Source: Patescibacteria group bacterium
GTDB lineage: Bacteria > Patescibacteriota > Microgenomatia > UBA1400 > PJMF01
Direction of reading: 5' to 3'
Assembly: GCA_049322655.1 (NCBI GenBank)
Contig: JBMORP010000006.1
Span: forward strand, 256,410 to 320,409
DNA length: 64,000 nt
The notes below the pieces were generated by a model. That model had not been told where the DNA came from, ran no database searches, and saw only the letters and a list, made by a program, of their open reading frames with translations. This document shows, one piece after another, positions 1,518-59,912 of this stretch. A program made the position numbers and the translations under genes. Every line of letters starts with the position of its first letter. Position 1 is the first letter of the stretch.

Positions 1518-1607
1518 AGTTATTATTTTCTCTATTTAAGAGAAATCCTTTCTGTAAGTTTACCTAAAAATTGGTAAAGCTACTTATTACCTATTTAAGT
1601 TTCGCTA

Positions 1608-1850
1608 TTAATAACGAAACACTTCTTTTAAAACATCGTCAAGTGTATCCCACTGTTCTCCACGAGAACATTTTTTAGCCTCAGAAGTTAATAAGTCTCT
1701 AGCGACTCTACCCAATGAACTTCTAACAGCTATAACTTGACGAACAATATCTACACAAGCACGTTCGTCTTGGTACATTCTAGCAATACCCTCAATTTGG
1801 CCGTTTATCCGGTTTAGTTGAGCGACAATGGGATCTTTTTGACTTGTCAT
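1608..1850 (-). CDS. CsoR/RcnR/CstR-family (DUF156) metal- or thiol-sensing transcriptional repressor, two-Cys type
   Basis: 80 aa with the typical helical-bundle pattern (NRINGQIEGIARM...). Cys32 and Cys61 are 29 residues apart, as in the Cys pair of CstR. The position where Cu-CsoR has His (C-4) is Glu here. Confidence 0.8.
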   Translation of the reverse strand: MTSQKDPIVAQLNRINGQIEGIARMYQDERACVDIVRQVIAVRSSLGRVARDLLTSEAKKCSRGEQWDTLDDVLKEVFRY

Positions 1851-8869: not shown

Positions 8870-9259
8870 TTAGCGATCTCTTCTAGATCTATCAAAACCA
8901 CCTGATCTGCCACCGAAACCACCACGACGGTCCCCACCACGGAAACCACCTCTGTCGCCACGATCTTCTCTAGGCTTTGGAGGTTGAGCGATCTTAATAA
9001 ACAACTTACGACCTTGAACATCCTGGTCATTAAGCTGTTCCATAGCTTTGGCTGCATCTTCTGCTGAAGCGAACTTAACAAAGGCGAAACCTTTGGAACG
9101 ACCTGTTCTGAAGTCTGTAATTAATTTACATTCCTCAACTTGGCCATATTGACCAAACATATCGCTAAGCTCTTCTTCTGTCAAAGAATATACAAGATTG
9201 CCAACGTAAAGTTTGCTTGGATCCTGTGCTTGATTAGTACTATCTTGAGAGGTAAACAT
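8870..9259 (-). CDS. RRM-domain RNA-binding protein with C-terminal RGG/Gly-Arg-rich tail
   Basis: RNP2-like LYVGNL and RNP1-like KGFAFVKF motifs. C-terminal tail RGDRGGFRGGDRRGGFGGRSGGF. Confidence 0.85.
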   Translation of the reverse strand: MFTSQDSTNQAQDPSKLYVGNLVYSLTEEELSDMFGQYGQVEECKLITDFRTGRSKGFAFVKFASAEDAAKAMEQLNDQDVQGRKLFIKIAQPPKPREDRGDRGGFRGGDRRGGFGGRSGGFDRSRRDR

Positions 9260-11763: not shown

Positions 11764-13794
11764 TTATTCTCCTTTTACTTTTTCAAGCATACCTAGTTTT
11801 TCCAAACCGACCAGTAACAAAAAAGCATCAAATAAAAGATTGCTTTCTTCTTTATTGGCTGTTGGATATGCTAAATAGTCACTGTTACTTTCCTGAGGAA
11901 ACAAAATCACTCCCTGCCCAGGATCTGCTCCTGAACTAACATTCCCTTTACCCATGGTATCAACATTACCTGCCCACCAACCAGGAGCTACTAAAACTGG
12001 GTATTCAGTTTCATCGTTAAATGGATCATGAAACATCTGCGTACCAGCATTCTGCATATGCCCACCAACCACAATACCTGGTTTGTCATGCATATAAAGA
12101 TCATAATTTCTTTTCAAACCAAAGGTCGGCTTGGAAAACGAACCATGATTACCAAGTTTATCTAAAACCGCCAAAGTATAAGGTAAAGCAGCTTCTGGCC
12201 CAACTGCCAACTCAATTGTAGATAAATGGTGAATGAGTGGAATATCAGCGTGACGAGCTAAGTAACTTCCTGGAGCAATTGGATCATCTCCATTTTTCCA
12301 GTTTTCATCCCTTAAATTAGCATCCAATAATAATGCCAAGCCCTTATCCTCTGATCTTGAAATAAATCTTGCTGTCTTATCTAAAACTTCTCTGCGATTG
12401 GCTAGTTTTCCAACCGTACTATCAATCAAGTTTCTTAAATAGATAACCACAGCGTGAGGATTGTTAATCACAAAATCACGTTGAAATTTATTCGCTCTAT
12501 TAAAACCATCTGTTTGTTCGTTGCTACCAAGCCTAACATTAGAAATAAGTTGTAATAAAATTGGTAATTCTGTTTCAATGTTAAATTTGAGGTGAGAATA
12601 AACGGGCTCTCTCTTCAAGTCATCACCGTTATGACCTTTTTCTTCAAGTCTCTTCAAGGCTTTTTTATTGGGTAGACTTTCCATTTCTTCAGGTGTTTCG
12701 GCTGATGAAAAAACATCCCACTCAATAGTTGGTTCAGTTCCAAACTCAGCCAAAACTAACTCTCTCAGCTCGGCAGTCATGCCTTGCTTTTCAGTACTGT
12801 TTAATAAACCCAAACCTTTCTGAGCTAAATCTGCATGTCTCAAAGTTGGTAATGGAGTATGAACTACTTCTTTTGAACGTTTTTTATATTTACCTACTGG
12901 TCTAGTCATCAGGACACTAGTCATTCCTTTACCAGTTGTATAAGGTCTACCCAATCTCACTCCGAACTGATCAACTGGTAAACTCTTATTAACTGATTTA
13001 ATTGTTCCAGAAGAAACCATATAAATCGGGAAAGATGAACCAGCATGATGTTCTTTGCCCACAGCTAACTGATGAATGTGAGCAGAAGCTGCTCCCTCTG
13101 GTCTATTAGCTTCAGATTTTTTAAGTAATTCTTCTCTATTTCCATGCAAAGCATCATATTTGCTTTTGCTGGTGGGATTATGCCTTGTTTCTAAAACTGA
13201 CTCCTGACCATCAGCAAATATAAAAGTCACTTGACCACCATTCAAAATAGTGTCAACATTACAAGCTTCAGCCAATATAGCCCAGGGATCAATCGTAGTA
13301 GACTCATGAGCCCAACCAGGATGGCCCCAATAATGACTAACCATACCAATCACTTTGCCTGCATCAGCTAGTGGCCTTAAAATTTCATCACGAAAATAAT
13401 TAAGTTGTTCCTGAAGGTGCATATTTAAACCAGTCATATTAGTGGTTAAATATTTACTCTTAACACCCTCGATTTCATCTCCCAAAAAAACAATTTTAAC
13501 ATTACTAGTATCAAAAACGATTGGTTCCCCAGCCTCATCATAGCCAACAATAATCTCATCATCTTCCAACAAAAAATCGCGAAGTTTTTTTAGCTCTTCA
13601 TAATCAGTCGCGGCATGACCAATATGTAAATCTCCAATTAAAAGTACTAACAATGGTTCATCTCCTTCAACCCGATACTCCAGATCCATCGTGGGCTGAA
13701 TATCCATAATTAGTTGTTGTTGGAGCTCAATTAATTCTCTTCTTTTTTCATAATGAGTTTTTCTCTTTTGTTCTTTTTCTGCTGCCAATACCAT
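11764..13794 (-). CDS. large hypothetical protein with N-terminal calcineurin-like metallophosphoesterase motifs
   Basis: GDLHIGH and FLGDEIEG resemble metallophosphatase motifs I and II. The remaining roughly 450 aa have no recognisable family. Start lies 3 nt past the upp stop. Confidence 0.5.
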   Translation of the reverse strand: MVLAAEKEQKRKTHYEKRRELIELQQQLIMDIQPTMDLEYRVEGDEPLLVLLIGDLHIGHAATDYEELKKLRDFLLEDDEIIVGYDEAGEPIVFDTSNVKIVFLGDEIEGVKSKYLTTNMTGLNMHLQEQLNYFRDEILRPLADAGKVIGMVSHYWGHPGWAHESTTIDPWAILAEACNVDTILNGGQVTFIFADGQESVLETRHNPTSKSKYDALHGNREELLKKSEANRPEGAASAHIHQLAVGKEHHAGSSFPIYMVSSGTIKSVNKSLPVDQFGVRLGRPYTTGKGMTSVLMTRPVGKYKKRSKEVVHTPLPTLRHADLAQKGLGLLNSTEKQGMTAELRELVLAEFGTEPTIEWDVFSSAETPEEMESLPNKKALKRLEEKGHNGDDLKREPVYSHLKFNIETELPILLQLISNVRLGSNEQTDGFNRANKFQRDFVINNPHAVVIYLRNLIDSTVGKLANRREVLDKTARFISRSEDKGLALLLDANLRDENWKNGDDPIAPGSYLARHADIPLIHHLSTIELAVGPEAALPYTLAVLDKLGNHGSFSKPTFGLKRNYDLYMHDKPGIVVGGHMQNAGTQMFHDPFNDETEYPVLVAPGWWAGNVDTMGKGNVSSGADPGQGVILFPQESNSDYLAYPTANKEESNLLFDAFLLLVGLEKLGMLEKVKGE

Positions 13795-13825
13795 CAGCGA
13801 ATCCTTTCTAAATTAATTTTTTGCC

Positions 13826-13851
13826 AAAAAAAATCCGCCTAATAGGCGGAA
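13826..13851 (-). terminator. rho-independent terminator (TCCGCCT-AATA-GGCGGA with an 8-nt T-run on the minus strand)
   Basis: Hairpin plus T-run downstream of the minus-strand gene 13963..15063. Confidence 0.5.
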
Positions 13852-13962
13852 GTAACACTTAAAAAATTTTTCTGGTCAAAATAAATAAAAACATAACCAG
13901 GGTTTGAGTATATAGATACTAATGTACTTTTTGCAAGCAGCTAAAAAACTTAAATTATCAAG

Positions 13963-15063
13963 CTAAAATTTTTTATTAAAAACAACTGTTAAAAATATTT
14001 GGGAGATTTTAAAAATATCTTTTTCTTTTAGATGAGGACCTAGTGGCAAATAAATAACTTTTTGTCTTTTAGTCCAACCAAAATTATCTAATTCAAATCG
14101 AACCATCAAACCATTTGATCTCAACTTGTTTAAAATTTCTACAGCATCATCAAGAAATAAACCAACAGGAAAAGCTCTCAGTTTTCCATAATCTCTTTGA
14201 GCAAAATTAATTCTAAAAAATTGTTTAGACTGCCAAAGTGGTTCTAATAGCTTTTGGTAAAGTTCAACTTGGTTGACCTTGGTAACAAAAATATGTTGAT
14301 GGTTAATTTTAAAACTTAGATTTTTAAAAAAATTAAAACCGCTACCAGCCAGCTGACTATCTCCAATATGGTCGTAGCCAACCAGCATTGTCAGTTCAGT
14401 CAACTTGTTCCACCACTGCTGCCATTTTTGAAAAGGTAAAACTAAAACCATTAATAAACAACATTGAAATAAAATCCACCACCATAGAACTTTTAACCTA
14501 TAAATTAATGTCTGATTAATAGGAGTTGGTTTTAATGCTGATAATAAACTCTTTGGACCATAGAGATTGCTACCTTGAAGGGGAACTACTTTCCTCAAAC
14601 TATCAATTATTACATGACGCTCAGTAATTAAAGAAATTTTATTTGAATCAATAACACGATGGACTGAGTCTTCAATTAACAAACTATTTTTAGGTAAAAC
14701 ATCAAGCCATTTTTCTGCCTTATTCAAAAGTTTATTTGTAATACCAACTGCGTGAAAAATTACCACTAAATCTGGTTGGTATTTTTTTAGATATTGTTTA
14801 AAAATTTTTACCGAAGTTTGAAAACCTCGATCAACAGGATAAGTTTTAACAATTAAACCATGAGCGCTCATGTTTTTTACTACATCATCACAATAAAAAT
14901 CAGGCACTAAAATTATTGAACCGGCTTGACAACCAAAATATTTAAGTAAATCCCAAAGAGCATCTTCCCATGAAAGATAAAAAAAATGAGCCAAATTAAC
15001 TGGTGGAAAAGTGGTTTGGTTAGTTAGGTAATACCACCAACCAACTGGTTGAATTGGAGCCAT
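13963..15063 (-). CDS. hypothetical protein; weak resemblance to fold-type-I PLP (DegT-like) aminotransferase core
   Basis: The segment SWEDALWDLL..GSIILVPDFYCDD and then LLIEDSVHRV...DSLRKVVPLQG loosely follow the DegT-family pattern including a candidate Lys. The call is tentative. Confidence 0.35.
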   Translation of the reverse strand: MAPIQPVGWWYYLTNQTTFPPVNLAHFFYLSWEDALWDLLKYFGCQAGSIILVPDFYCDDVVKNMSAHGLIVKTYPVDRGFQTSVKIFKQYLKKYQPDLVVIFHAVGITNKLLNKAEKWLDVLPKNSLLIEDSVHRVIDSNKISLITERHVIIDSLRKVVPLQGSNLYGPKSLLSALKPTPINQTLIYRLKVLWWWILFQCCLLMVLVLPFQKWQQWWNKLTELTMLVGYDHIGDSQLAGSGFNFFKNLSFKINHQHIFVTKVNQVELYQKLLEPLWQSKQFFRINFAQRDYGKLRAFPVGLFLDDAVEILNKLRSNGLMVRFELDNFGWTKRQKVIYLPLGPHLKEKDIFKISQIFLTVVFNKKF

Positions 15064-15084
15064 AAATCTTAAATCTACTAAAAA

Positions 15085-15738
15085 TTAACCTTTTCTAATA
15101 ACCACTCCATAGTGGCCACCATAACCAACATTACACAAGTCACCACCATCTGTTAGTTGCTTTAAAGTAGCATTAATTCCTTTGATTGAATTTAAAGTTT
15201 TGACTATTTGGTTTAAATCAATCCCCTGATATTTAAATGAACCAGAAAGCAAAGCCAACCCACCAGCGTTCAATTTACTGACTAGTAATAGTAAATTTTC
15301 ATAACCCAACTGGTCTGGTAAGTCTGGAATTCGACAAAAAGTAAGAGCATCATAACTCAAATCAGTAAATTGTAAAATTCTCCAAATAGAATCCTGGAGC
15401 GAAACAACTCTACCAAGAGCTATTTCTTGTTCTCCCTCTTCATATAAGATTTGATGGTTAATTTCTTCATCAAGAACCTTAAATCTTGGATAATAGTTCT
15501 CATCACATAACACTAATTTATCTACACCTGGATAAAGGTGCCTATATTTAGATCCTGGAGAACAAATAAAAAATCTTTCTGGAAACATTCCACCCACTCC
15601 AGCCGTCAAAACTGTTCCTCTAAAATCAGTTGTTTTTAAACCAATGTTTTCATAAACATGCCCAAATTGAGCAATATACATTTCTGTATGACTCAAACTA
15701 TCTGCGCTACTATTTGACCAAGTTTCTCTCATTTTCAT
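15085..15738 (-). CDS. hypothetical protein (possible nucleotide-binding or methyltransferase-like Gly-rich loop TAGVGGMF)
   Basis: ORF only; no confident motif. Confidence 0.3.
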   Translation of the reverse strand: MKMRETWSNSSADSLSHTEMYIAQFGHVYENIGLKTTDFRGTVLTAGVGGMFPERFFICSPGSKYRHLYPGVDKLVLCDENYYPRFKVLDEEINHQILYEEGEQEIALGRVVSLQDSIWRILQFTDLSYDALTFCRIPDLPDQLGYENLLLLVSKLNAGGLALLSGSFKYQGIDLNQIVKTLNSIKGINATLKQLTDGGDLCNVGYGGHYGVVIRKG

Positions 15739-15756
15739 TAATTCTAAAAAATATCT

Positions 15757-16149
15757 TCACCATTTTTGTAAATAACTTTCTTCAACTTCCCAACCATCCT
15801 GAAGTTCACTACTCCAATGAACCTTCTCTCTAACTACATAGTAATATTTATAATTTTTATATTCTACAAACTTAACAAGACAGTTTATTTCCCCATTTAG
15901 TCTTACCCCTTCACCAAACTTGAATCTAGGAGCTTTATCTTTAAATTCACTCAACAAAGATTCTTCAACATTGATCTGTTGAGGGGTGATGGTTTCCTGA
16001 TGAAATTCAGCTGGCTCCATATCTCTCTGATAAGCGACCAAAAGCAATTTGTAGTGGTAACCAGGACCATCAGTAGCCAAATCCAAAACTCTATAAATAC
16101 CATCCTGATATACAACAAGAGAGTTATCTGAGAATTTTGGGGTAGTCAT
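15757..16149 (-). CDS. hypothetical protein
   Basis: 130-aa ORF with no motif. Confidence 0.35.
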   Translation of the reverse strand: MTTPKFSDNSLVVYQDGIYRVLDLATDGPGYHYKLLLVAYQRDMEPAEFHQETITPQQINVEESLLSEFKDKAPRFKFGEGVRLNGEINCLVKFVEYKNYKYYYVVREKVHWSSELQDGWEVEESYLQKW

Positions 16150-16230
16150 CTAAAGGATATTATAAGTGATAGATTGAAAATTTTCTTGTATTAGAGTTAG
16201 AGTCAATTTAGAAACAAAACAGCACTATAA

Positions 16231-16788
16231 TTAGGTTAGAGAAGTCATGAAGTACCACTCCATTATAGTTGGTCTCTTTTCACTTAATAAAATTTTTCTT
16301 ACAATCACTTGCTTATCAACTTGATTAACTTTTGCCATTTTTTTGCACAATTTTCTTGCTTCAACATCAATATCATATGCATATATTTTGGAGTTTGGTA
16401 TTTTTAAGGCCAAACCAATTGCGTATTAACCTTCAGCACTGCCAATATTAATTATCTGCTCATATTTTGTACTACAAATTTTTTTTATCAGTGAGTGAAG
16501 TTCTTTTTCGTAAGATCCAAGTAACTTAGGAAAAAATTCGCTCCCTATTGATTTAGGTTCTGTATATTGCATCCCTTTAAAAGGACCATTTTTGACTATT
16601 AAATCAGGAAATAATTTTGAAATAGCTAGTCTAACCACTTTGTTTTCATGAGATTCATCTGGTAATTTAACCTTTTTTCTTGTCTCATGAATGTAGTTTG
16701 CTGCTCTCCATATAGATTTATTAAAAAGAAAGTAAAAAAAATCTATATCAACTAAGCTATCGATAATTATTTTAATTAATTTTTTCAA
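16231..16788 (-). pseudogene. FkbM-like SAM-dependent methyltransferase interrupted by a single in-frame TAA at 16426..16428
   Basis: The two track ORFs (16426..16788 and 16231..16413) are in the same frame. Read through, they give ...NIGSAEG*YAIGLALKIPNSKIYAYDID..., a SAM-binding glycine-rich motif split by one stop codon. Confidence 0.5.
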
Positions 16789-24946: not shown

Positions 24947-25579
24947 ATGACTATGAAACAGTTAATTTTATTTGATATTGATGACACTATCTTTAACACC
25001 ATCCTCTTTAGAAAAATCCAGGATGAAACTTTGGCTAAATACCTGGAAATCACTGACCTAGAAATCAAAAAAATCAGAAGTGAATATTATTACCAACTTG
25101 AAAGAGGTAGTGATTTTTCTATTGATGAATTTCTCAAAATAATTGCTGAAAAATATCAGCATGATTTTTTAGAAATAAAAAAAGTTTTCCTTAATAAAAA
25201 AAATGTTGAGTTATGCCTATACACAGAAATCCCTGAGGTTTTGGCTAAATTAAAAAAACAAAATTATTCTTTAGGGGTTTTTTCTGAAGGACATAAAAGC
25301 TTCCAACTTCACAAACTTAAGGCTAAAAATATAATTAGTTTTTTTTCTCAAAGTCATCTTTATATTTTAAGAAGAAAAATCGATCCAGCTATTTTAAAAA
25401 ACCTACCCAAAGATACGATCATTATCGATGATAAACCAGATATTCTCGAGGAACTAAAAAAGTTCGACAACATTAGACCAATCCAAATAATAAGAGAAAA
25501 CAAAAAACATGAACCAATTGTCTGTGATAACATCATTAACAGTACTGAGCAGTTATTAAGATTGCTCCAGCTTGACTAA
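24947..25579 (+). CDS. HAD-superfamily hydrolase
   Basis: N-terminal ILFDIDDTIF (DxD motif I) and a later IIIDD motif. Confidence 0.6.
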   Translation: MTMKQLILFDIDDTIFNTILFRKIQDETLAKYLEITDLEIKKIRSEYYYQLERGSDFSIDEFLKIIAEKYQHDFLEIKKVFLNKKNVELCLYTEIPEVLAKLKKQNYSLGVFSEGHKSFQLHKLKAKNIISFFSQSHLYILRRKIDPAILKNLPKDTIIIDDKPDILEELKKFDNIRPIQIIRENKKHEPIVCDNIINSTEQLLRLLQLD

Positions 25580-26446
25580 TTTTGACAAAGCAAATAGCAG
25601 TACCAAAGCAAAAATATACTGGACTGGCACTAAATAAGTTTTATAAACAACAGCATCTATCACAATAGCTAAAACAGGAAAAACCAATTCTAGTAATGTG
25701 GATAATCTTACTGGAGTTGTCTTCAAACCTTTGTAATAGATATAAAGAGCCACCATTCCAGTAGATAAAGCAATGAAAGTCAAACTTGCCCACTGACTAA
25801 AGTCAGGCAATAAAAAGTTGTTTCTTTGAAAAACAATTAAAGACAAACCAGCAAAAAAAGTAGTTGCCAAAAACCTCAAGCCGGTAGCCTGCTTTGAGTC
25901 TACTTTGTTTAAAATCTTTTTGGAAAAAGTTGTGCCAGTCCCCCAAAAAAAAGCTGCTCCAAGCGCGTACAACGCCGCCAAAATATTATTACCATCCTGA
26001 CTAAGAGAAACACTGCCTGTGGGGAAAGTAATATAAAAAGCAGCAATCAAAGCCACTGCCGCCCATAACCAATAATAAGATGAAAATTTTTCCTGCAAAA
26101 TTATTTTTGCTGAACCAATTGCAAAAATAGGTTGGAGTTTTTGTAATAAAAAAACCACACTAAAAGAAATAAAAAATACTTGCTGCAAAGCAGCTGTAAA
26201 TAAAATCGTTCCTAACAAACCACTAAAAAGCGCCACTAACAAAACCTCTTTCCAAACTTGTTTGAAATCTTTAAATTTTAGTTTCCAAATAATCGGTAAT
26301 AAAAAAACCACCCCAACTAAATGCTCAAGAAAAACTATTTGCAAAGGTGACAAAACAAATAAATTTCTTCTAATCACCCCATCAAAAGCCCACAAACCTG
26401 CAGCTAAAACTATATATAGTGGTCCAAAATTAAATTTATTCAACAT
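25556..26446 (-). CDS. EamA/DMT-family transporter
   Basis: 296 aa, 10 TM helices with two EamA-like repeats. Confidence 0.7.
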   Translation of the reverse strand: MLNKFNFGPLYIVLAAGLWAFDGVIRRNLFVLSPLQIVFLEHLVGVVFLLPIIWKLKFKDFKQVWKEVLLVALFSGLLGTILFTAALQQVFFISFSVVFLLQKLQPIFAIGSAKIILQEKFSSYYWLWAAVALIAAFYITFPTGSVSLSQDGNNILAALYALGAAFFWGTGTTFSKKILNKVDSKQATGLRFLATTFFAGLSLIVFQRNNFLLPDFSQWASLTFIALSTGMVALYIYYKGLKTTPVRLSTLLELVFPVLAIVIDAVVYKTYLVPVQYIFALVLLFALSKLVKLEQS

Positions 26447-26804
26447 TTAGGCTTTGTTTTATATCTCTTATATCCTTACTAATCTGTTCTTTTAGTAAAG
26501 AAAAATCTGTAAAATCCATTACACCTCTTATATATTGCTCTAAAGAAAACTCAACTTCTCGTCCATAAATCTGAGCTGAAAAATCTAGAACAAAGATCTC
26601 CAACACATCAAAATGCTCATTCTTAACCAACCTCGGACCAAAGTAGGCAGCTCCAGGAAAAACCTTGTTATCGATTTTTACCCAACTAGCATAAACCCCT
26701 TTTTTCAAATTAGTTGGCAAAACTTGTGGATCCAAGTTAATGGTTGGATAAGCCTTCTTTGTTCCTTCTTTTGCCCCATGGAAAACCTGTGATTTATAAA
26801 ACAT
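26436..26804 (-). CDS. monofunctional riboflavin kinase
   Basis: YPTINL, GVYA, a FGPRLVKNEH-like flavin-site segment and FDxxIYG; 122 aa with no FAD-synthetase domain. Confidence 0.7.
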   Translation of the reverse strand: MFYKSQVFHGAKEGTKKAYPTINLDPQVLPTNLKKGVYASWVKIDNKVFPGAAYFGPRLVKNEHFDVLEIFVLDFSAQIYGREVEFSLEQYIRGVMDFTDFSLLKEQISKDIRDIKQSLNVE

Positions 26805-27833
26805 CTAATCTTTCTTTTCTGTAGCTGAAACAGTGGCTTCTGGTTTTTTTTCTTGAGCCTTGTTTAAATCTTCAAGCTTAATATCCCAGACTACACCATC
26901 CTCTTCATGTAAAGCTGCCCAACAAAACCATAACTGAGGGTAACCACCAACCCGCTGACCATCTTGTGTGACAATCACTTCAGAACCTACCCGACCAGCT
27001 CTAATCTCGGTTCCTTCAAAATTTCTTACTCTAACCTCTTCTGGTGGTAAATCATTAAAAGAAAAAGTTAGTGATTTTTCTCCTAATGGAACTACATACA
27101 TCATTTCTTTTTTGGAAAAACGTTTATTTTGATAAGAAACGTAATCAGGAATTTCTTCTGTTGCTAAATAACCACTATAAGGATTAAAACTATAGTTATT
27201 AAAATAACCAGTGTCTTGACTCAAAACCTCAGCATCATAGTGATTAATTCTGACATCTTTGAAAGTTAACACTTGTGTAGTTCGAACCAAATCTAAAGTT
27301 ACTTTATTAAAATCTCCAGCAATAGCTCTACCCAATCCCTGTGACCAGAGACTTTCTGTTTTAGTGTCATAGAACACCAAATTAGCTTTGTAAAGCAAGC
27401 CACTCGCTCTAAATTTAAGCCCTTGATCTTCAGCACTAGCTCGATAAACAGCAATTGATTCACAAAAAGGACTATAAGTTACAGCAAAAGGAACTCCTTC
27501 CATAAAATCATTAATTACTTCATGCCAAACTAAAATATTTGCAGGATAAAATCTCTTCTTGCCCGTAATATCTACTAACACTCCTTTAGTGGAATCTTTA
27601 AGTTGTTTCTGAGCTTCTTTAACAGAAATAAATTTAGGCTCGTAAATCTCTGGGATGTCATCTTTACCCACTTTTCCTAAAATTAAATCATCAGTTTCAA
27701 TACTCTTTTCTTGCCAATTAGTCCTAAATGAATTAAAACGCTGGTAACGATAAAACAAATTGTAGCCATAACTTCCAACCAACCAGCCCGCTAGCAACAG
27801 TAATCCCCCAAAAATAACTTTTTTATTCTTCAT
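26805..27833 (-). CDS. secreted or membrane-anchored protein, possibly DUF3179 family
   Basis: N-terminal signal anchor, conserved TYSPFCES segment, and length about 340 aa. Confidence 0.4.
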   Translation of the reverse strand: MKNKKVIFGGLLLLAGWLVGSYGYNLFYRYQRFNSFRTNWQEKSIETDDLILGKVGKDDIPEIYEPKFISVKEAQKQLKDSTKGVLVDITGKKRFYPANILVWHEVINDFMEGVPFAVTYSPFCESIAVYRASAEDQGLKFRASGLLYKANLVFYDTKTESLWSQGLGRAIAGDFNKVTLDLVRTTQVLTFKDVRINHYDAEVLSQDTGYFNNYSFNPYSGYLATEEIPDYVSYQNKRFSKKEMMYVVPLGEKSLTFSFNDLPPEEVRVRNFEGTEIRAGRVGSEVIVTQDGQRVGGYPQLWFCWAALHEEDGVVWDIKLEDLNKAQEKKPEATVSATEKKD

Positions 27834-29958: not shown

Positions 29959-30582
29959 ATGAAGTTGTTTACCAATCCACTAGTTTGGCTGCAAAAGTTT
30001 GTTGCCACCAACCAAAAAGCAGTCATTAGATTTAGCTATCTATTGATGATCACCCTAATTGGGCTGGTCGTGACGACCTATTTGGTAAAAGACTACCGAG
30101 TTTATTGGTCTGAACTAGGTAAAAAGGCCGCTACGCTGAGTTTGATCTTGTTTTGGGTGACACTCATTCCAGGAATATTAAAAAGATTTCAATTAACTGG
30201 TATTTTTATGCCCATTAGAGTGATCATCATGCTTTTTAGAAAAGAAATCGGGATTTTAATGTTTCTTTTGGCCTTTGCTCATTACTTTTGGTCCAGATTT
30301 CTACCCATCTTGGTAATAAAAGGTGATCTGCTTGCTTTTAGCCTCTTTGAAATTTTTGGCTTGGGAGCTCTAGTCTTAGCTTTCCCAATGTTTATCACTT
30401 CTAATGATTTATCGATTCAAAAACTTGGCAAAGTCTGGAAATTAATTCATTCGGCCACTTATATAATAATTTGGCTTTTGTTTCTTCATGTTGTTTTGAG
30501 AAACCCAGACATTAAAGCCTTAATCACTTTAATTTTGGGTTGTCTAACTTTGGCCTCATTGGCTAAAGAAAAAACTAGTTAA
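29959..30582 (+). CDS. ferric-reductase-like transmembrane domain protein (MsrQ/YedZ-like, putative b-heme membrane protein)
   Basis: 207 aa, six TM helices with His residues inside helices (AFAHYFW, IHSATY, FLHVV). Confidence 0.5.
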   Translation: MKLFTNPLVWLQKFVATNQKAVIRFSYLLMITLIGLVVTTYLVKDYRVYWSELGKKAATLSLILFWVTLIPGILKRFQLTGIFMPIRVIIMLFRKEIGILMFLLAFAHYFWSRFLPILVIKGDLLAFSLFEIFGLGALVLAFPMFITSNDLSIQKLGKVWKLIHSATYIIIWLLFLHVVLRNPDIKALITLILGCLTLASLAKEKTS

Positions 30583-30997
30583 GATCACCAATATAAAAAT
30601 TCTGTAATAAAGACATAGCCTCAGCAGAATGAGGTCGTTTAGTCTCCTTGCCAATATTGTTCCACATCTCTGTAGCATCTTTCCCACAACCCTTATTCAT
30701 AGCCTTACCTCCTGGGTGAACTTGCTCTGCAATATAAAGAGTCACATCATAAACTCTGCCCTCAATGGCCATCCAACAATCTTCTGCAGTAGCATGCTGA
30801 GCCACTTCTTCCAAAGAAAAACTATTAGTTTCAACTGGTTGTTGTTTTTGTCTCTGGTAGTAATTAAAAAATAAAAAACTCGCACCAAAAATAATCACTA
30901 ACAAACTAATAATCAAAGATTTAAAACGAGGATTTCTAGTTATTTTTTTTCTTGGCTTAGCTTTTTTGTTAATTTTCGAGGGTAGTTTTTTGGGCAT
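30575..30997 (-). CDS. membrane-anchored cytochrome b5-like heme-binding domain protein
   Basis: N-terminal basic segment plus TM helix, then a b5 fold: EDCWMAIEGRVYDVT...HPGG...RPHSAEA (both axial His present). Confidence 0.75.
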   Translation of the reverse strand: MPKKLPSKINKKAKPRKKITRNPRFKSLIISLLVIIFGASFLFFNYYQRQKQQPVETNSFSLEEVAQHATAEDCWMAIEGRVYDVTLYIAEQVHPGGKAMNKGCGKDATEMWNNIGKETKRPHSAEAMSLLQNFYIGDLN

Positions 30998-31069
30998 GAC
31001 TAAAAAAATAGATAATTACTAACAGCTATCCATTCTAATTTAAATCTTAACTGGCTTAAAGCAGGAAAA

Positions 31070-31495
31070 TTACTCTAGATCACCAATATAAAAATTTGCT
31101 AAATAACCTTCAGCTTTCTCAGAGTGAGAACCGCTCCCATTGGGTCTATTTCTAAATAATTCACTAGCATCAGAACCACACCCCAACAAGATTGCTTCAC
31201 CTCCCGGATGAATGCCTTGTTTGATATAGGCAGTTACATCATAAACCTTACCCTCGATAACAAGCCAGCAATCACTAGCTGAGGAATGTTCTTTAACATC
31301 AGCTAAAGTATATGTTTCCATTTCATTTTGGTTGTCACCAGTCGGCTGGTTGTCAACCCCAACAAGTTGTTGCTCCTGAACAGGCAAGTCAGTGACAGCT
31401 GGTATTGGCTTATCCTGGCTAGAAACTAGATAATTATTAAGTAAAAAACCAACAGCTACTAACAATAACAAAATTAAAAAAAAATTTTTAGTCAT
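31070..31495 (-). CDS. membrane-anchored cytochrome b5-like heme-binding domain protein (paralog)
   Basis: Signal anchor, then SDCWLVIEGKVYDVT...HPGG...SHSEKA. The C-terminal FYIGDL motif is shared with the upstream paralog. Confidence 0.75.
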   Translation of the reverse strand: MTKNFFLILLLLVAVGFLLNNYLVSSQDKPIPAVTDLPVQEQQLVGVDNQPTGDNQNEMETYTLADVKEHSSASDCWLVIEGKVYDVTAYIKQGIHPGGEAILLGCGSDASELFRNRPNGSGSHSEKAEGYLANFYIGDLE

Positions 31496-31632
31496 AAAAA
31501 ATCTCGGTTACTTAATAACTCAATTTCAGATTACAGTATAACTAATAACTAAGCATGAATGAGTGAAAAAAATTACAAAAAATGTGAGCTGAATTACTAA
31601 GTTTTTATTTAGAAAGAAAGTATAATGATGAT

Positions 31633-32379
31633 ATGAGTTTTTCATTAGATGGTTCTCAAGTCGGTTTTATCACGGCTTACTTAGCTGGTTTGTTAACTTT
31701 TTTTGCTTCTTGTATCTTACCTTTAGTTCCTACTTACTTGGGTTATTTATCAGGAATTGCTTTCAGAGATTTAGATAAAAAAGAAAATAGTCTTAAAATC
31801 TTTAAAACAGCCAGTATTTTTGTTTTTGGCTTTGTCCTGAGTTTTGTTTTGATGGGCTTATTACTTCAAAGATTGGCTGGTTTATTGATTGTTTATCGGC
31901 CAATGATTGAAAAAGTAAGCGGAGTTTTCTTTATAGTTTTTGGTCTTTATCTCTTGGGCATTTTCAAATCAAGATTTTTAGCCAAAGAAAAACAAACTAA
32001 TTTAAATAATTTTTTTGAAAAAAATATCTACCTTCATGCGTTGTTTACAGGGCTAGGCTTTGGTTTTAGCTGGACACCTTGTATTGGGCCAGTCCTAGCA
32101 GTAATTCTTTACTGGTCTGCCCAAGCAGAAACAACAATAATCGGCTCCTTACTACTAGTTAGCTTTGGTTTTGGAATTGGCACACCATTCTTGCTCGTCT
32201 CGTTAGCTTTTGAAAAACTTGTCCCCTTATTAAAAAGATACAAACACATCAGTAAGTATATTACTTATATATCAGGAGCAATTGTTTTATTATTCGGTTT
32301 ACTTTTATTTTTAGGTCAATATCAAACTTTGGCTATTGGTCTAGTAAATTTTTTATCGATTTCTGCTAAATCATTTTAG
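31633..32379 (+). CDS. ccdA: cytochrome c-type biogenesis / thiol-disulfide transporter CcdA (DsbD TM-core family)
   Basis: Conserved Cys in TM1 (FASCILPLVPTYLGY) and TM4 (WTPCIGPVLA). Confidence 0.8.
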   Translation: MSFSLDGSQVGFITAYLAGLLTFFASCILPLVPTYLGYLSGIAFRDLDKKENSLKIFKTASIFVFGFVLSFVLMGLLLQRLAGLLIVYRPMIEKVSGVFFIVFGLYLLGIFKSRFLAKEKQTNLNNFFEKNIYLHALFTGLGFGFSWTPCIGPVLAVILYWSAQAETTIIGSLLLVSFGFGIGTPFLLVSLAFEKLVPLLKRYKHISKYITYISGAIVLLFGLLLFLGQYQTLAIGLVNFLSISAKSF

Positions 32380-47571: not shown

Positions 47572-49284
47572 TTAACCAAAAGTAAAAGCATAAATTTCAA
47601 CGTTACCATCAAACTCTATTCTCAGCTCATGTCTACCGGGCTCATCTAGTTTAATTAGTTTATATAAAGTATTTTTCTTAACTTCAACAATTCCATTATC
47701 ATTATCTTCACCCATCCCAGCTATAGCATCATCTAAATAAACTTTCATCTCACCTGCTTTTTCGTCAGTGGGTCTAGCCACTAGAAAAACTTCTCTGGCT
47801 TCAAAATTAAGATACAACTTAGAACCTACCGTTGGATAAGCAAACTCACCATTCACCACCCAGCTGCCTTCATAAGCAAAACCATTAGTTGGCAATAATC
47901 CGGGGACAGTAAAAACTGTTGGTTCTCCTGGTTCAAAACTTTGCGGTGAAACTAAGTTACTAATTCTATCACTTCCCAAATATAACTCTGGAGTTTTGCT
48001 ATAAGTTTGATAATCTGGGTTATCTATGTTGACACTCACTTCAACTCCTGTCTCCTTTAATAAATCTTGAATAATCTGTTCTGTTTCATCATAATCACCC
48101 TCGCCAAAGTGGGTGTAACGAATAACGCCATCCTTATCAACCAAGTATTTGGCTGGCCAATATCTATTTTTATATGCGCGCCAGGTAGAAAAGTTATTAT
48201 CTTGCATAATTGGATACTCTAGACCAAAATCATCAATGGCTTGTTGCAGATTGGCTGGCTCTTTTTCAAAGGCAAATTCTGGACTATGAACGCCAATAAT
48301 CACTAAACCTTGGTCTTGATATTTGGTCCACCAGTTTCTGAGGTAAGGGAATGTTCTTTGACAGTTAATACAAGAATAGGTCCAAAAATCTACCAATATC
48401 ACTTTGCCTTTTAAATCAGCCAAAGTGAGTGGCTCTGAATTGAACCACTCACCACCAGCAACTAATTCTGGAGCTGAGTTTATTTTTTTCATTACATCTG
48501 ACATCGGTTGTCCTTTCTCAAAATCGTCAAGAGATCTAGAGTTAATTTGTTCTAATTCTTGTTTGACCTGTTCGTTATCTTCAAACTTAGTCAAGCCAAC
48601 TCCATAGTTTGGAAATTTTTCTAAAATATATGATTGAAACTGACGATCAACATTAAAATAAATAGCTATCGCAGTCAGAATCATTAACATGCCAAATAAT
48701 TTTTGAATATTACCAGTATTTTTAACCAACCAAGGCACTCTTTGTAATGCCGTTACGCCAACTTTCATGATCAACAACATTGGTAAAGCCGTACCGAGTG
48801 CATAAAATAAAGTAATTAAAAAGGCTTGAGTGTTAACTGAACCAGTCAACGCCAAACTGATAACCGAAGCCAAAATTGGACCAACGCACGGTGTCCATAA
48901 TAGCCCTAAAGATAAACCTACAACAAAACCACCACCAAAGCCAGTTTTTCTTTCAGCAGTTGGGGTTGAGCTAGCCAACTTACTAAAAAGTATTTCTAAT
49001 AAGGCCTGAACTTTGGGAATCAATAAACTCAAACCAAAAGTTGCCAAAATAAAAATTGATATAAATCTTAATGAGCTAGCAGAAATCCCCAAAAATGTAA
49101 CAATCGTCGATAGAAAAAGTGTGAAAAAAGTAAAACTGGCAATAAAACCAACCACTACTCCCAATGGACGTTGTTTGTTGTCTGCGTCAGCAGAAGCCAA
49201 GATAATTGGCAATAAGGGTAGGATGCATGGGGATAAAACAGTGACTATCCCAGCTAAAAAAGCAAAAGCTATTAATAAAATCAT
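47572..49284 (-). CDS. DsbD-like fusion: CcdA-type transmembrane electron transporter plus periplasmic thioredoxin-like (TlpA/ResA) domain plus C-terminal beta-rich domain
   Basis: CcdA Cys pair in TM helices (LSPCILPLLP, WTPCVGPILAS) and a thioredoxin CxxC (WTYSCINCQ); 570 aa. Confidence 0.8.
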   Translation of the reverse strand: MILLIAFAFLAGIVTVLSPCILPLLPIILASADADNKQRPLGVVVGFIASFTFFTLFLSTIVTFLGISASSLRFISIFILATFGLSLLIPKVQALLEILFSKLASSTPTAERKTGFGGGFVVGLSLGLLWTPCVGPILASVISLALTGSVNTQAFLITLFYALGTALPMLLIMKVGVTALQRVPWLVKNTGNIQKLFGMLMILTAIAIYFNVDRQFQSYILEKFPNYGVGLTKFEDNEQVKQELEQINSRSLDDFEKGQPMSDVMKKINSAPELVAGGEWFNSEPLTLADLKGKVILVDFWTYSCINCQRTFPYLRNWWTKYQDQGLVIIGVHSPEFAFEKEPANLQQAIDDFGLEYPIMQDNNFSTWRAYKNRYWPAKYLVDKDGVIRYTHFGEGDYDETEQIIQDLLKETGVEVSVNIDNPDYQTYSKTPELYLGSDRISNLVSPQSFEPGEPTVFTVPGLLPTNGFAYEGSWVVNGEFAYPTVGSKLYLNFEAREVFLVARPTDEKAGEMKVYLDDAIAGMGEDNDNGIVEVKKNTLYKLIKLDEPGRHELRIEFDGNVEIYAFTFG

Positions 49285-49305: not shown

Positions 49306-49848
49306 TTATTTAATGTTCTTTAGTAACTCCTCAACCGAGCCACCATTCCATTTTTTAATTACTTCGCCATTTGCATCAATTTGTACAAAAGTATGTTGGT
49401 AAATAACTCCATATTTATTGGCCAAAGCCTTTTCAGTATTATCAGTGTCAGTATCATTATAGTTAACTTTAATCACAGTTAAATCTGCTGGTAAATCAGC
49501 TTTAATCAAAGCAGCGTCAACTGGCTGACAAGTTGGACACCAATTGGCATAAAAAAATAACACTCTTTTTCCATCATCCTTGGTCATCAAATCTTCTCCA
49601 CCATAAACAACATATTTGCCTGATCCTTCCATCATGGCGCTTTCATCATCTTTTACCATCGTCTCATCTTCTTTCACCATAGCATCAATATCATCTTCCA
49701 TCTTAGTTTCAGCTTCGTCTTTCATCATGGTTACTTCTTCATTCTCCATCATTTTTGAGTCAGTTTCATTTTTTTGCAAAATAAAATAACCAATAACTCC
49801 AACTAAGGCTAAGCCCAATATCAAGACCAATGTATTATTATTTTTCAT
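49306..49848 (-). CDS. membrane-anchored thioredoxin-like protein with Met/Glu-rich low-complexity region
   Basis: WCPTC active site in a thioredoxin fold, preceded by MMENEEVTMMKDEAETKMEDDIDAMVKEDETMVKDDESAMMEG. Confidence 0.7.
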   Translation of the reverse strand: MKNNNTLVLILGLALVGVIGYFILQKNETDSKMMENEEVTMMKDEAETKMEDDIDAMVKEDETMVKDDESAMMEGSGKYVVYGGEDLMTKDDGKRVLFFYANWCPTCQPVDAALIKADLPADLTVIKVNYNDTDTDNTEKALANKYGVIYQHTFVQIDANGEVIKKWNGGSVEELLKNIK

Positions 49849-53977: not shown

Positions 53978-54514
53978 ATGAAAATACAAGCTATAGCTTT
54001 GCCTATTAATAAAATTTTAACCAAACAAACTCTATTCTATTTGACGATCTTTACTCTGCCATTACTTAGCCATGCCAACCAACTCTTGGTTGGAACTGCC
54101 GTTAACTTAATGCTGTTCTTGGGAGCCAAAAACCTCACCCACAAAGAACTGATTCTGTTGGCCATCCTGCCCAGTCTTGGAGCAATCAGTAACGGCGTTT
54201 TATTTGGCTCATTTACCATGTTGCTGATTTATTTTGCTCCAGCTATTTGGTTGGGAAACTATTTGATGATGAGAGTCTTTAACCAAACCAAAAACTTACC
54301 TACCTTAATCAGTATCATTAGCGCAGCCCTAGTTAAAACAGCTTTATTATTTGGAGTAGCCTTAAGTTTAGTCAAACTAAGTTTGGTGCCAACAATTTTT
54401 CTCACAGCAATGGGAACAGTTCAGTTTATTACAGCTACAACTGGGGGAATCTTAGCTAATTTGCTTAGTCAAAGCAAACTTTTTACCGAAACCAAGGAGC
54501 CTGCCAATGACTGA
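53978..54514 (+). CDS. small polytopic membrane protein (5-6 TM helices; ECF S-component-like size), unknown function
   Basis: 178 aa, hydrophobic. Its stop overlaps the downstream hydrogenase-like gene by 8 nt. Confidence 0.5.
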   Translation: MKIQAIALPINKILTKQTLFYLTIFTLPLLSHANQLLVGTAVNLMLFLGAKNLTHKELILLAILPSLGAISNGVLFGSFTMLLIYFAPAIWLGNYLMMRVFNQTKNLPTLISIISAALVKTALLFGVALSLVKLSLVPTIFLTAMGTVQFITATTGGILANLLSQSKLFTETKEPAND

Positions 54515-55415
54515 CCAGCTACCAGTTAAACCAAAAACAGAACCTGAAATCTTAATTGACTTACTAAAAAAAAATCAACCACTAGTGGCAATGCTTGCCC
54601 CATCATTCCCCATTGTTTATGAATTTGCTAACATTGTTGGAAAATTAAAAAGACTTGGTTTTAGCTATGTAGTTGAAGTCACTGCTGGTGCAATGCATAC
54701 CAATGCTGCAGCCATTGAACTACTAAAAAATAATCCTCAAGCTAGAGTTATCACTAGCCCTTGCGCCAGTTTTGTTAGAATGATTAGAACTAAATATCCA
54801 CATTTAGAAAAATATTTAGGCTTTGCTGCAGATTCACCAATGGTCGCTACAGCTAGAATTGTTAAAAAAAAATACCCAAATCACAAACCTGTTTTTATTG
54901 GCCCATGTAATGCCAAAAAACTTGAAGCTAATGAAGATTACCCAGAATTAGAGATTCTGTCAGTAACCTACAAACAAATGCAAACTGTTTTTGACCATTT
55001 TCAACTTCAAGATGACCCAACTGATGAACAGGCAAAACTAGATCTTGAAGAAACTCATACCAGACTCTATCCAATCTCTGGAGGTTTAGCTCAAAGCAGT
55101 GCTGTCAAAGATTTATTAGCAGATGAAGAAATAGAAGTTGTTTCTGGCTGGCAAAATTGTGAGCAAGCTCTCAAAAGATTTGAAACCAGTGACCGAATTA
55201 GACTATTAGATATTCTCTTTTGTGAGGGTGGTTGTATCAATGGACCAGGAATTAATAGCCCTCTTTCTCTGGCTGAACGTAGAGAAAAAATAGTTCAATT
55301 TTGGGAACTGGGTAATAAACAACCAATTCCCATTGTAGAGTTAAATAAAGCTACTCAATTTAAAAAAATTTTTCCAGCTATAAGAAAAGCCCTCACGGGC
55401 TTATTCCATTTTTAA
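54507..55415 (+). CDS. [FeFe]-hydrogenase H-cluster-domain-like protein (minimal, 302 aa) with variant L1 motif TSPC
   Basis: Aligns by eye to the CpI H-domain: APSFPIVYEF..LKRLGFSYVVEV, L1 ITSPCASFV (vs FTSCCPGW), L2 IGPCNAKKLEA (vs MPCTSKKFEA), L3 FCEGGCINGPG (vs MACPGGCVNGGG). All four [4Fe-4S]H Cys ligands and the Lys/Glu of L2 are present. Confidence 0.65.
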   Translation: MTDQLPVKPKTEPEILIDLLKKNQPLVAMLAPSFPIVYEFANIVGKLKRLGFSYVVEVTAGAMHTNAAAIELLKNNPQARVITSPCASFVRMIRTKYPHLEKYLGFAADSPMVATARIVKKKYPNHKPVFIGPCNAKKLEANEDYPELEILSVTYKQMQTVFDHFQLQDDPTDEQAKLDLEETHTRLYPISGGLAQSSAVKDLLADEEIEVVSGWQNCEQALKRFETSDRIRLLDILFCEGGCINGPGINSPLSLAERREKIVQFWELGNKQPIPIVELNKATQFKKIFPAIRKALTGLFHF

Positions 55416-58536: not shown

Positions 58537-58782
58537 TTACTCTTCCACTTTATAGCCCAAAGCCTCAATCGTTTTTTTAATTTTTTCTAAATTAACTTTT
58601 TCTGAATCATATTCCACTTTAGTCTCTGCTTTGGCATAGCTAGTAGTGGCACTGTTTACTCCCGTTAAATCTTCAAGCTCACCATCAATACTCATACTAC
58701 AGCTAGTACAATGCATGCCATTAATCCTCAAAGTAGCTACTGTTCCAGCTTGATTTTTATTTTTTTTAAAAAAATTTAACAT
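58537..58782 (-). CDS. copZ: heavy-metal-associated (HMA) copper chaperone
   Basis: GMHCTSCS MxCxxC motif in an 81-aa ferredoxin-like fold. Confidence 0.8.
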   Translation of the reverse strand: MLNFFKKNKNQAGTVATLRINGMHCTSCSMSIDGELEDLTGVNSATTSYAKAETKVEYDSEKVNLEKIKKTIEALGYKVEE

Positions 58783-58786
58783 ATAG

Positions 58787-59899
58787 TTAGATAACCTCCA
58801 TAATACCTGTGTACATTCCCATCGAACAAGAAAAAGTAAATTTACCTTTTCTGGTTGGGGTAAAAGTGAAACTTTGCGTATCAGTAGATTTTAAATAAGT
58901 ATTAATACCAAATTCCCTAAAAACAAAAGCCAAAGCACAAGAGTAAGTATTGTTACTTTGTAGGGTCATTTCTACTGGTACACCACTTTTCACTTTAATA
59001 TAGTTAGGTTGATAACCACGACTCAAAACATCTATTTTTATTTGTTGAACACCATTTTTTACACCAACACTATTGCCAGCCTGTTCAAATCTATCTGCAG
59101 AAAAAAAATAAGTAATTGGTTGAACAATTTTATTGAGTGTAAGCGGTGAATCAACTACTAATAAAACTCCATTAACACTATAAACAGCCATACCAATGAG
59201 AACGGTTGCCGCAAGCTTAGTAAATTTTTGATACCAACCCTCACTAAGCTTAGCTGTGGCTACACCCAAAATAGCAAATAATGGAGAAGTCCCCAAAATG
59301 AAAGTAAACATAATTGCTGCGCCAACAAAAGGATTGCCAGAGTTAATGGCTAATACCTCCATCGCTTGAGTTACTCCACAAGGAATAAAAATCGTCATCA
59401 AGCCCAATACGGCTGGAGCAAATAAAGCCTGACTTTTACTTGTTCCCCTAATTAATCTTTGAAGAAACTTGGGTGGTTGAAAAGCTAAATGACGAAAAAT
59501 AGGGTGAACATCCAATAAGTTCATGGCTGTGGCAAACATAAAAACAGCAGTGAAAACTTGAAAAGTTAATCTCATGCCTAAACTTAAAGTTATGGTTGAA
59601 CCAAGCAAACCTAGTAAAAAACCCAAAATGGTGTGAGCAACTAACTTAGCCAATAAAAACATCAAGACTGGCAACCAGTCTAATTGATCGAAAGACTGTA
59701 AAGAAAAACTATTTTCTTGTAAAGATTTTAAATATTTTTCTTTCCTCTTGGCTTTTTCTTTAACTTTGTTGTCATCAACTTCATCACGTTCTTGTTCTTT
59801 TTGGTTGGCAACCACACTAGCCAACAAGCCACCTTGCATCGCTAAACAAGATAACCCTCCTGTAGTTAAACCTGTTAGAAAAATAACTAATAAATCCAT
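58787..59899 (-). CDS. membrane protein with N-terminal DsbD/UreH-like transmembrane domain and C-terminal cupredoxin-like soluble domain (putative Cu-handling permease)
   Basis: GLTTGGLSCLAMQGGLL motif in TM1, a second Cys-containing TM segment (IFIPCGVTQAM), and a C-terminal beta-rich domain with a Cys/Met cluster (FSCSMGMYTG). Confidence 0.5.
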   Translation of the reverse strand: MDLLVIFLTGLTTGGLSCLAMQGGLLASVVANQKEQERDEVDDNKVKEKAKRKEKYLKSLQENSFSLQSFDQLDWLPVLMFLLAKLVAHTILGFLLGLLGSTITLSLGMRLTFQVFTAVFMFATAMNLLDVHPIFRHLAFQPPKFLQRLIRGTSKSQALFAPAVLGLMTIFIPCGVTQAMEVLAINSGNPFVGAAIMFTFILGTSPLFAILGVATAKLSEGWYQKFTKLAATVLIGMAVYSVNGVLLVVDSPLTLNKIVQPITYFFSADRFEQAGNSVGVKNGVQQIKIDVLSRGYQPNYIKVKSGVPVEMTLQSNNTYSCALAFVFREFGINTYLKSTDTQSFTFTPTRKGKFTFSCSMGMYTGIMEVI

Positions 59900-59912
59900 A
59901 ATTTTCTCCTTG

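Follow-up and report, generated by a model that had tools for sequence, protein, structure and literature searches.

Within a 64,000-nucleotide stretch of a Patescibacteria group bacterium genome (assembly GCA_049322655.1, contig JBMORP010000006.1, positions 256,410 to 320,409 of the forward strand; referred to below as the window), four open reading frames (ORFs) at positions 29,959 to 32,379 encode a ferric-reductase-like membrane protein (FRD), two cytochromes b5 (b5A and b5B) and a CcdA protein. All four ORFs were present at the coordinates given in an initial annotation of this DNA, and the NCBI annotation of the 652-kb source contig gives the proteins generic names. With confidence slightly above even, FRD is interpreted here as an MsrQ-like single-haem flavocytochrome that reduces the two tethered extracytoplasmic cytochromes b5, the three proteins forming a split b-haem transmembrane electron relay. 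In such a relay, the cytoplasmic-side flavin of FRD would be reduced by a separate NAD(P)H:flavin reductase, or else by free reduced flavin, and the one haem b of the protein, close to the outer face, would receive the electrons next. From this outer haem the electrons would reach b5A and b5B, which would be held outside by their N-terminal anchors and flexible linkers and would serve as one-electron carriers towards an acceptor outside the cytoplasm. The ccdA product would be a separate thiol-based conduit, merely next door.

The link between FRD and b5 is supported by the recurrent adjacency of their genes, by a protein in which both are fused (P0136) and by operons in which a NOX-like gene precedes a gene for several b5 domains. 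The direction of electron flow, the loading with haem and flavin and the physical contact between FRD and b5 are what we infer. The initial annotation had proposed a self-contained transmembrane unit exporting reducing power to the cell surface. The part concerning the surface held, since adjacency, fusion and operons make FRD a plausible transmembrane electron conduit to the b5 domains. The self-containment did not, as FRD carries no dehydrogenase domain and no FNR- or Fre-like donor is encoded in the window.

The ferric-reductase-like protein

The FRD gene (29959..30582, plus strand) encodes a protein of 207 amino acids with six transmembrane (TM) segments. A marginal Pfam match to Ferric_reduct was obtained (PF01794, 28.7 bits against a cut-off of 28). 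The AlphaFold2 (AF2) model had a pLDDT of 88.4 and a pTM of 0.84, and its top nine PDB matches in Foldseek were all NOX5, SpNOX, STEAP1/2 or DUOX. The Pfam match, the fold and the structural neighbours corroborate the six-TM ferric-reductase-like protein that had first been described. By sequence, the FRD profile matched only STEAP2 in the PDB, at a non-significant level (E 0.18).

The histidines, which had been reported as intramembrane pairs, were found to be three in number: one in TM3 (H108) and two in TM5 (H164 and H177, 13 residues apart). All three were invariant in an alignment of ten relatives, as were R94, S148 and W160. R94 stands where the first TM3 histidine would be, which is the MsrQ/YedZ/STEAP pattern; this exchange of the first haem histidine of TM3 for arginine marks the YedZ/STEAP group (PMC3591440).

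When the FRD family profile was compared with E. coli MsrQ by hhalign, a probability of 91.5% (E 8.8e-7) was obtained. FRD residues R94, K95, H108, M144, S148, W160, H164 and H177 aligned with MsrQ R77, R78, H91, L131, S135, W147, H151 and H164, respectively. In MsrQ, H91 and H164 ligate the single periplasm-side haem, and H151, R77, R78, W147, L131 and S135 make up the cytoplasm-side FMN pocket (PMC12525009). In a MAFFT alignment of MsrQ with 27 distinct family members from the candidate phyla radiation (CPR), positions H91, S135, W147, H151 and H164 were kept in all 27 and R77 in 26; the sole exception has a histidine there, and is presumably the four-His NOX-like fusion of locus L037 discussed below. 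H108 and H177 are the predicted ligands of the outer haem b of FRD, and R94, K95, M144, S148, W160 and H164 its predicted cytoplasmic-side flavin pocket. The loop charges fit the usual N-in topology, which places H108 and H177 near the outer face.

Judged by these residues, FRD is an MsrQ/YedZ-type member of the ferric-reductase superfamily with a single predicted haem, not a two-haem ferric reductase. It shares with E. coli MsrQ and the STEAP group the six-TM fold, the arginine in place of the first TM3 histidine and the three retained histidines, and with MsrQ the conserved outer-haem and inner-FMN residues. Like MsrQ, which is served by Fre, it has no fused dehydrogenase and would need a separate cytoplasmic reductase. 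It is, however, not an MsrQ orthologue: the sequences are very distant (16.7 bits with the NCBIfam MsrQ equivalog NF003831, cut-off 130) and MsrP is absent from the window. The gene adjoins cytochrome b5 genes instead of one for an MsrP molybdoenzyme partner, and neither the 64-kb window nor any of the related loci contained an Oxidored_molyb/MsrP gene. Another difference from E. coli is that the CPR host is probably devoid of quinones. With bacterial NOX and long-form bFRE proteins (SpNOX and the TM domain of NOX5), FRD shares the superfamily fold, whereas it has neither the FAD/NAD domain nor the fourth histidine and is predicted to hold one haem rather than two. True long forms are present in the relatives of loci L037, L113, L114 and L115, in each case directly upstream of b5 genes.

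The CPR-type FRD family comprised 233 representative clusters at E <= 1e-30, nearly all of them stand-alone proteins of about 200 amino acids and almost all uncharacterised. In two members, P0159 and P0266, the same type of FRD is fused to an FNR-like dehydrogenase, so that the ultimate electron source of the family is probably NAD(P)H. Typical cytochromes b5 have a potential near 0 mV. The potentials of MsrQ are lower (FMN -340 mV, haem about -250 mV; PMC12525009), so that electron flow from inside to outside would be thermodynamically natural.

The cytochromes b5

The genes b5A (30575..30997, minus strand, 140 amino acids) and b5B (31070..31495, minus strand, 141 amino acids) encode tandem paralogues with 44% identity, as had been noted initially. 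Both matched Pfam Cyt-b5 (PF00173) with scores of 68.9 bits for b5A and 68.2 bits for b5B, well over the cut-off of 23.7. The signal anchor, the HPGG motif and the second histidine of the initial annotation were present in both proteins, the second axial histidine being located in a PHS/SHS motif. In b5A, a polybasic N-terminal tail with 12 Lys/Arg and no acidic residue precedes a TM helix at about 27-45, and the b5 domain (61-139) contains a Cys pair, HPGG and the second histidine. The AF2 model of b5B consists of a helix (3-25) in a signal-anchor-like N-terminus, a disordered linker (27-56) and a confidently modelled b5 fold (60-140), with the Cys pair C76/C106 and the predicted axial ligands H96 (of HPGG) and H124. 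The protein is predicted to be either membrane-anchored or made with a signal peptide. The b5A type of paralogue, with its polybasic tail and diverged HPGG-to-His segment, was found only in the window and in its 93%-identical relative L013; the other relatives have a single b5.

The best PDB match of the b5 profile was a characterised bacterial cytochrome b5, the cytochrome b558 of Ectothiorhodospira vacuolata (1CXY, E 2e-25). A Foldseek search with the b5B model led to the same protein (TM-score 0.88, rmsd 2.0 Å), and the top 50 matches were all cytochromes b5. From sequence and model, b5A and b5B are assigned as classical bis-His cytochromes b5 of the bacterial b558 type, sharing with 1CXY the HPG and second-His ligands. 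Both family cysteines align with cysteines of 1CXY, which reportedly form a disulfide in the crystal structure published in 1999. The two systems differ in that b558 is soluble, whereas the window proteins are anchored by an N-terminal helix and a 30-residue linker and are duplicated in tandem. We know of no partner or function for cytochrome b558. The shared C-terminal FYIGDL, once singled out as a common tail, is indeed present in both paralogues, but it is the ordinary, conserved end of the b5 fold and not an additional motif; its counterparts in the alignment are YLIGTL in 1CXY and YYIGDV in rat b5.

The b5 family appears to be exported, with the domains in an extracytoplasmic position, because its members often carry lipoboxes. 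In a 36-sequence alignment (A2), C76, Y85, H96 of HPGG and C106 were invariant and H124 nearly so, and a lipobox stood at the N-terminus of many sequences. Among 78 distinct b5 ORFs, a hydrophobic N-terminal segment was found in 75 and a lipobox-like motif in 29, both cysteines occurred in all 78 and the second histidine in 76. The N-terminal segments, the lipoboxes, the Cys pair and the polybasic tail of b5A agree with the extracytoplasmic placement proposed at the outset. The supposed rarity of cytochrome b5 in bacteria does not extend to this lineage, in which one metagenome scan yielded 300 relatives confirmed by tblastn; the family is also treated in a 2021 preprint (bioRxiv 10.1101/2021.11.17.468889).

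As predicted surface-exposed haem binders, these proteins might instead be haem-scavenging receptors of a haem-auxotrophic symbiont, with FRD aiding haem or iron handling. CPR bacteria are organisms of a type thought unable to synthesise haem, which fits such a role. The strict bis-His hexacoordination and the b558-type fold are, however, typical of electron carriers and not of hemophores, related b5 genes are linked to NAD(P)H-dependent NOX-like conduits, and no haem transporter is encoded by the adjoining genes. Haem scavenging is thus considered highly improbable.

Gene arrangement

The four genes form three transcription units and not a single operon. FRD follows the enolase gene on the plus strand after a 16-nt gap. 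It converges on b5A with an overlap of 8 bp; b5B and b5A are co-oriented, with 72 nt between them, and b5B diverges from ccdA (31633..32379, plus strand) across a spacer of 137 nt (31496..31632), in agreement with the divergent order first reported. No further b5 or FRD gene was found in the 64-kb window.

In an alignment of the spacer from five relatives (A4), an invariant GTATAAT was located about 8 nt ahead of the ccdA ATG, and a conserved TATACT-like element on the b5B side. With GTATAAT so close to the start codon, the ccdA transcript may be leaderless or nearly so. A conserved block in the middle of the spacer, TGTRAGCTGAATTAC, could be an operator. A generic scan for sigma-70 promoters and terminators returned fewer promoter-like matches than did shuffled sequence, and an Rfam scan of the window for riboswitches (e.g. 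FMN) returned two tRNAs only.

Upstream of the locus, an EamA-family transporter gene (25556-26446, minus strand) overlaps a gene for a stand-alone riboflavin kinase (26436-26804, minus strand). The pair is conserved near FRD in relatives and lies one gene (enolase) away from it in L012 and L028. It may provide riboflavin and FMN for the predicted flavin site of FRD. Between the riboflavin kinase and RluB, a membrane-anchored DUF3179 protein is encoded (26805-27833, minus strand, 208 bits), which is kept in the closer relatives L004 and L007 and absent from L012 and L028.

Linkage of FRD and b5 genes in other genomes

Close relatives, with FRDs 57-93% identical, keep the order FRD-b5(-b5)-CcdA. 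Their whole neighbourhood is collinear, so this conservation is weak evidence by itself. FRD and b5 also adjoin each other in five lineages whose FRDs are mutually only 28-45% identical, with independent cases outside the close clade. In L002, an anchored b5-like gene begins about 25 nt after FRD. In L052, an MsrA gene precedes b5, and b5 and FRD converge and overlap, as they do in the window. In L057 the two genes are neighbours with b5 1.4 kb away, and in L037 an FRD fused to FAD and NAD domains lies directly upstream of b5. In the 409 kb flanking 75 b5 genes, three firm FRD-superfamily genes and a weak one were counted against 0.63 expected on the assumption of one FRD in every genome (P ~0.026 for three cases, 0.004 for four).

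Three ORFs were tried as further FRD candidates. The 208-aa ORF adjoining b5 in L006 and the 207-aa ORF of L112 proved not to be FRDs, and the 255-aa FRD-like ORF of L044, with an hhalign probability of 36%, was not counted as firm. Around the distant FRD loci L012-L029, no recurrent third gene was found beyond occasional Dus-like genes. The metagenome-assembled genome records L010, L013-L019 and L027 are titled 'uncultured Pseudomonadales' or 'Gammaproteobacteria' despite a CPR-type FRD and CPR neighbourhoods; their taxonomy is probably mislabelled.

FRD and b5 are fused in P0136, a single polypeptide composed of an MsrQ-type FRD (E 2.3e-50), an extra TM helix and two b5 domains. It is the fifth-best match to the FRD profile, and both of its b5 domains have the full Cys/HPGG/His signature. 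A second kind of association was found in the Pacebacteria-type loci L113 (4694-8127), L114 (4688-8004) and L115 (1998-5509), where a gene for a four-His NOX-like FRD-FAD-NAD protein overlaps by 4 nt the start of a gene for a predicted exported protein with 3-4 b5 domains. This two-gene operon order was present for three of four multi-b5 proteins whose genomic context was retrieved, in three unrelated neighbourhoods.

Several observations weigh against the relay. Among 20 species-level FRD loci, 15 have no b5 within 5 kb, and of the 75 b5 loci about 70 lack a neighbouring FRD. The enolase-FRD-LytR-MFS backbone persists in L012 and L028 with the b5/ccdA/queA block absent. P0136 is a singleton on a 1.9-kb contig, and could have arisen by stop-codon loss or an assembly error. 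In the window, FRD and the b5 genes are convergent and not co-transcribed. The Pfam score of FRD barely exceeds its threshold, and its score with the MsrQ equivalog lies far under the cut-off. Neither an FNR/Fre-like reductase nor MsrP, an iron transporter or another acceptor was found in the 64-kb window. CPR bacteria, moreover, are generally thought unable to make haem.

FRD, the b5 pair and CcdA might instead be coincidental neighbours that work with other partners, their order being inherited synteny in one Pacebacteria-like clade. The genes EamA-flavokinase-DUF3179-RluB-enolase...QueA-LytR-MFS are collinear in the relatives that share the arrangement, the backbone of L012 and L028 occurs without b5, ccdA and queA, most FRD and b5 genes elsewhere are unlinked, and the window locus is split into three transcription units. 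Against mere inheritance, the FRD-b5 adjacency recurs with FRDs of 28-45% identity and unrelated flanks, the P0136 fusion and the three NOX-like/poly-b5 operons exist, and FRD-superfamily genes are enriched near b5 over chance. Coincidence is regarded as unlikely.

The pairing was already flagged in outline by a 2021 preprint; its parts and logic are worked out here. In that study, a PF00173 gene was reported within 10 kb of PF01794 in 185 of 1427 FRD-bearing CPR genomes, and the colocalisation was stated to be CPR-specific and of unknown function (bioRxiv 10.1101/2021.11.17.468889). The preprint was focused on the MAPR-like Tyr-ligated cytb5MY, on the divergent CBLA/CBLB proteins and on two-component regulators. 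The window locus resembles these pFre and cytb5 clusters in its PF01794/PF00173 colocalisation. It differs in that its b5s are classical bis-His proteins of the b558 type (clade-2), not MAPR-like and Tyr-ligated, and in that no two-component system adjoins it. The nearest histidine kinase and response regulator are encoded at 43.7-45.4 kb, 12 kb from the locus. The preprint describes no MsrQ-type FRD class, no export, no fusions and no NOX-like/poly-b5 operons. In the literature searched, we found neither an assignment of a CPR FRD as an MsrQ flavocytochrome with all cofactor residues nor the signature of export and disulfide formation in the b5 family, and no FRD-b5-b5 fusion, NOX-like/poly-b5 operon or exported protein with up to nine b5 domains.

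The relay would turn an anonymous CPR colocalisation into a testable wiring diagram, from flavin to one membrane haem and on to the exported b5 haem or haems, and would mean that the MsrQ design can couple to a partner other than MsrP. It implies import of both haem and flavin, which bears on host dependence. CPR/Patescibacteria have been described as devoid of electron-transport chains, the role of their scattered electron carriers being left open, and cytochrome b5 was listed among these unexplained carriers in the Vampirococcus paper (PMC8080830). A Pfam survey of essentially all ORFs of the window revealed no respiratory-complex or haem-biosynthesis genes; the claim of the initial annotation that no respiratory chain is visible was thus borne out, within these 64 kb only.

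Possible acceptors and functions

The NOX-like/poly-b5 operons may point to extracellular electron transfer by way of b haems. It is conceivable, though rather doubtful, that non-respiring, probably haem-auxotrophic Patescibacteria own such a path, from NAD(P)H through MsrQ- or NOX-like FRDs and exported b5 domains to an external sink. The b5 domains would then be arranged as single anchored units, as in the window, as chains of 3-4, or as up to nine in related proteins, and some of the b5 proteins would span the wall with Ig-like or SH3 modules. Such a path would do with b5 what multihaem c-type cytochrome conduits do in Geobacter and Shewanella, and through it fermentative episymbionts would gain an electron sink or be redox-connected with their hosts. 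The interest of the locus would be higher if its b5 domains formed an extracellular electron-transfer chain.

Seven predicted exported poly-b5 proteins (P0284, P0287, P0299, P0297, P0285, P0288 and P0301) with 2-9 tandem b5 domains were collected, some of which also carry Big_7, SH3_3, DoxX or DUF2231 modules. A poly-b5 protein and its NOX-like operon partner may act as a b-haem electron wire.

Two faint themes, iron and oxidative stress, run through the neighbours of b5 and FRD genes. The same relay could also be an assimilatory reductase that reduces extracellular Fe(III) or Cu(II) for uptake, in the manner of FRE and STEAP. The STEAP and FRE relatives of FRD are metalloreductases (PMC3591440), and MsrQ-like clusters with VIT1 have been proposed as iron reductases (PMC8238504). 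The FRD gene of L057 has genes for an FTR1 iron permease and a Fur-family regulator at its flanks and lies 1.4 kb from b5, and Fur-family genes lie within ~3 kb in five loci. On the other hand, FTR1 was found in one of about 100 loci only. Near the window locus there is no Feo, FTR1 or Fur gene; the closest metal genes, ZIP (46.6 kb) and a copper cluster (58-62 kb), are both far off. FRE and STEAP, furthermore, reduce metals directly at the outer haem, with no b5. Metal reduction was accordingly considered improbable.

In L057 (4517-8302), genes for a histidine kinase, PadR and b5 are followed by oppositely oriented Fur and TruB genes, and these by FRD, which converges with FTR1. This is the only locus that ties the relay to iron uptake.

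A third possibility is a defence of the envelope against oxidative stress, in which FRD and b5 would feed the detoxification of oxidants or a repair enzyme outside the cell, next to CcdA-dependent thiol systems and with ccdA inside the functional unit. MsrA adjoins b5 in L038 and L052 and is near b5 in L050 and L061. A fusion of DsbD_TM, peroxiredoxin and thioredoxin is encoded directly downstream of b5 in L105 and L109 and has an orthologue in the window (47572-49284). E. coli MsrQ serves methionine-sulfoxide repair (PMC12525009), and a role in oxidative stress has been suggested for CPR electron carriers in the Vampirococcus paper (PMC8080830). The MsrA proteins, however, have no signal peptides and perform thiol chemistry that cannot be driven by a one-electron haem carrier, and they are only mildly enriched (3 independent loci, with 0.63 expected). 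No MsrP or other molybdoenzyme was found in the 64-kb window or the related loci, and DsbD_TM neighbours of b5 are not above chance. Oxidative-stress defence was given the same low probability as metal reduction. The repair of methionine sulfoxide or disulfides by b5 itself, which the initial annotation had offered, would be chemically improbable for a one-electron haem carrier such as b5; MsrP is missing, and MsrA is a mildly enriched neighbour of b5 at other loci. No MsrA, FTR1 or Fur gene was found in the window.

CcdA and thiol-redox genes

The ccdA gene (31633..32379, plus strand) encodes a thiol-disulfide electron conduit of 248 amino acids with six hydrophobic segments. It matched Pfam DsbD_TM (58.1 bits) and Thermus CcdA (PDB 5VKV, E 2.6e-26), with C27 and C150 aligned. 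Like the known CcdA/DsbD conduits it is canonical in having both Cys motifs (SCILPLVP and TPCIGPVL), whereas the window locus has neither c-type cytochrome maturation genes nor an adjoining thioredoxin-like acceptor. DsbD_TM-family genes are frequent in the source genome, with three in the window alone, and their occurrence near b5 (2 independent cases against ~1.9 expected) does not exceed chance. The protein was therefore set aside from the module: it is a genuine CcdA, but probably a co-located bystander rather than a part of the haem relay. The membership in the module that the initial annotation had given it is doubtful, also in view of the absence of the block from L012 and L028.

Other thiol-redox genes were observed in the window. 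Thioredoxin reductase, thioredoxin and a CsoR-type metal-sensitive repressor are encoded in a row at 77-1850 (minus strand), and this thioredoxin system is a likely cytoplasmic electron source for CcdA/DsbD-type proteins. The ORF at 47572-49284 (minus strand) encodes a 570-aa fusion of DsbD_TM, AhpC/TSA/Redoxin and Thioredoxin_10, whose orthologue is the one downstream of b5 in L105 and L109. It adjoins a gene for a membrane-anchored thioredoxin (49306-49848, minus strand).

Other genes of the window

A copper/heavy-metal cluster was located at 58537-62661 (minus strand). Its genes encode a chaperone of the HMA type, a fusion of DsbD_2 with cupredoxin (58787-59899), an HMA-containing P-type ATPase and a regulator of the ArsR type that has a YHS domain. 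At 54507-55415 (plus strand), a protein of 302 amino acids consists solely of the C-terminal domain of the Fe-only hydrogenase large subunit (111 bits), and upstream of it lies an ORF of 178 amino acids that has a signal-like N-terminus and matches nothing in Pfam. Five ORFs in a row at 11764-16788 (minus strand; 676, 366, 217, 130 and 120 amino acids) remained without a Pfam match at E <= 1e-4. At 8870-9259 (minus strand), a protein of 129 amino acids contains an RNA recognition motif of the eukaryote type (RRM_1, 91.7 bits).

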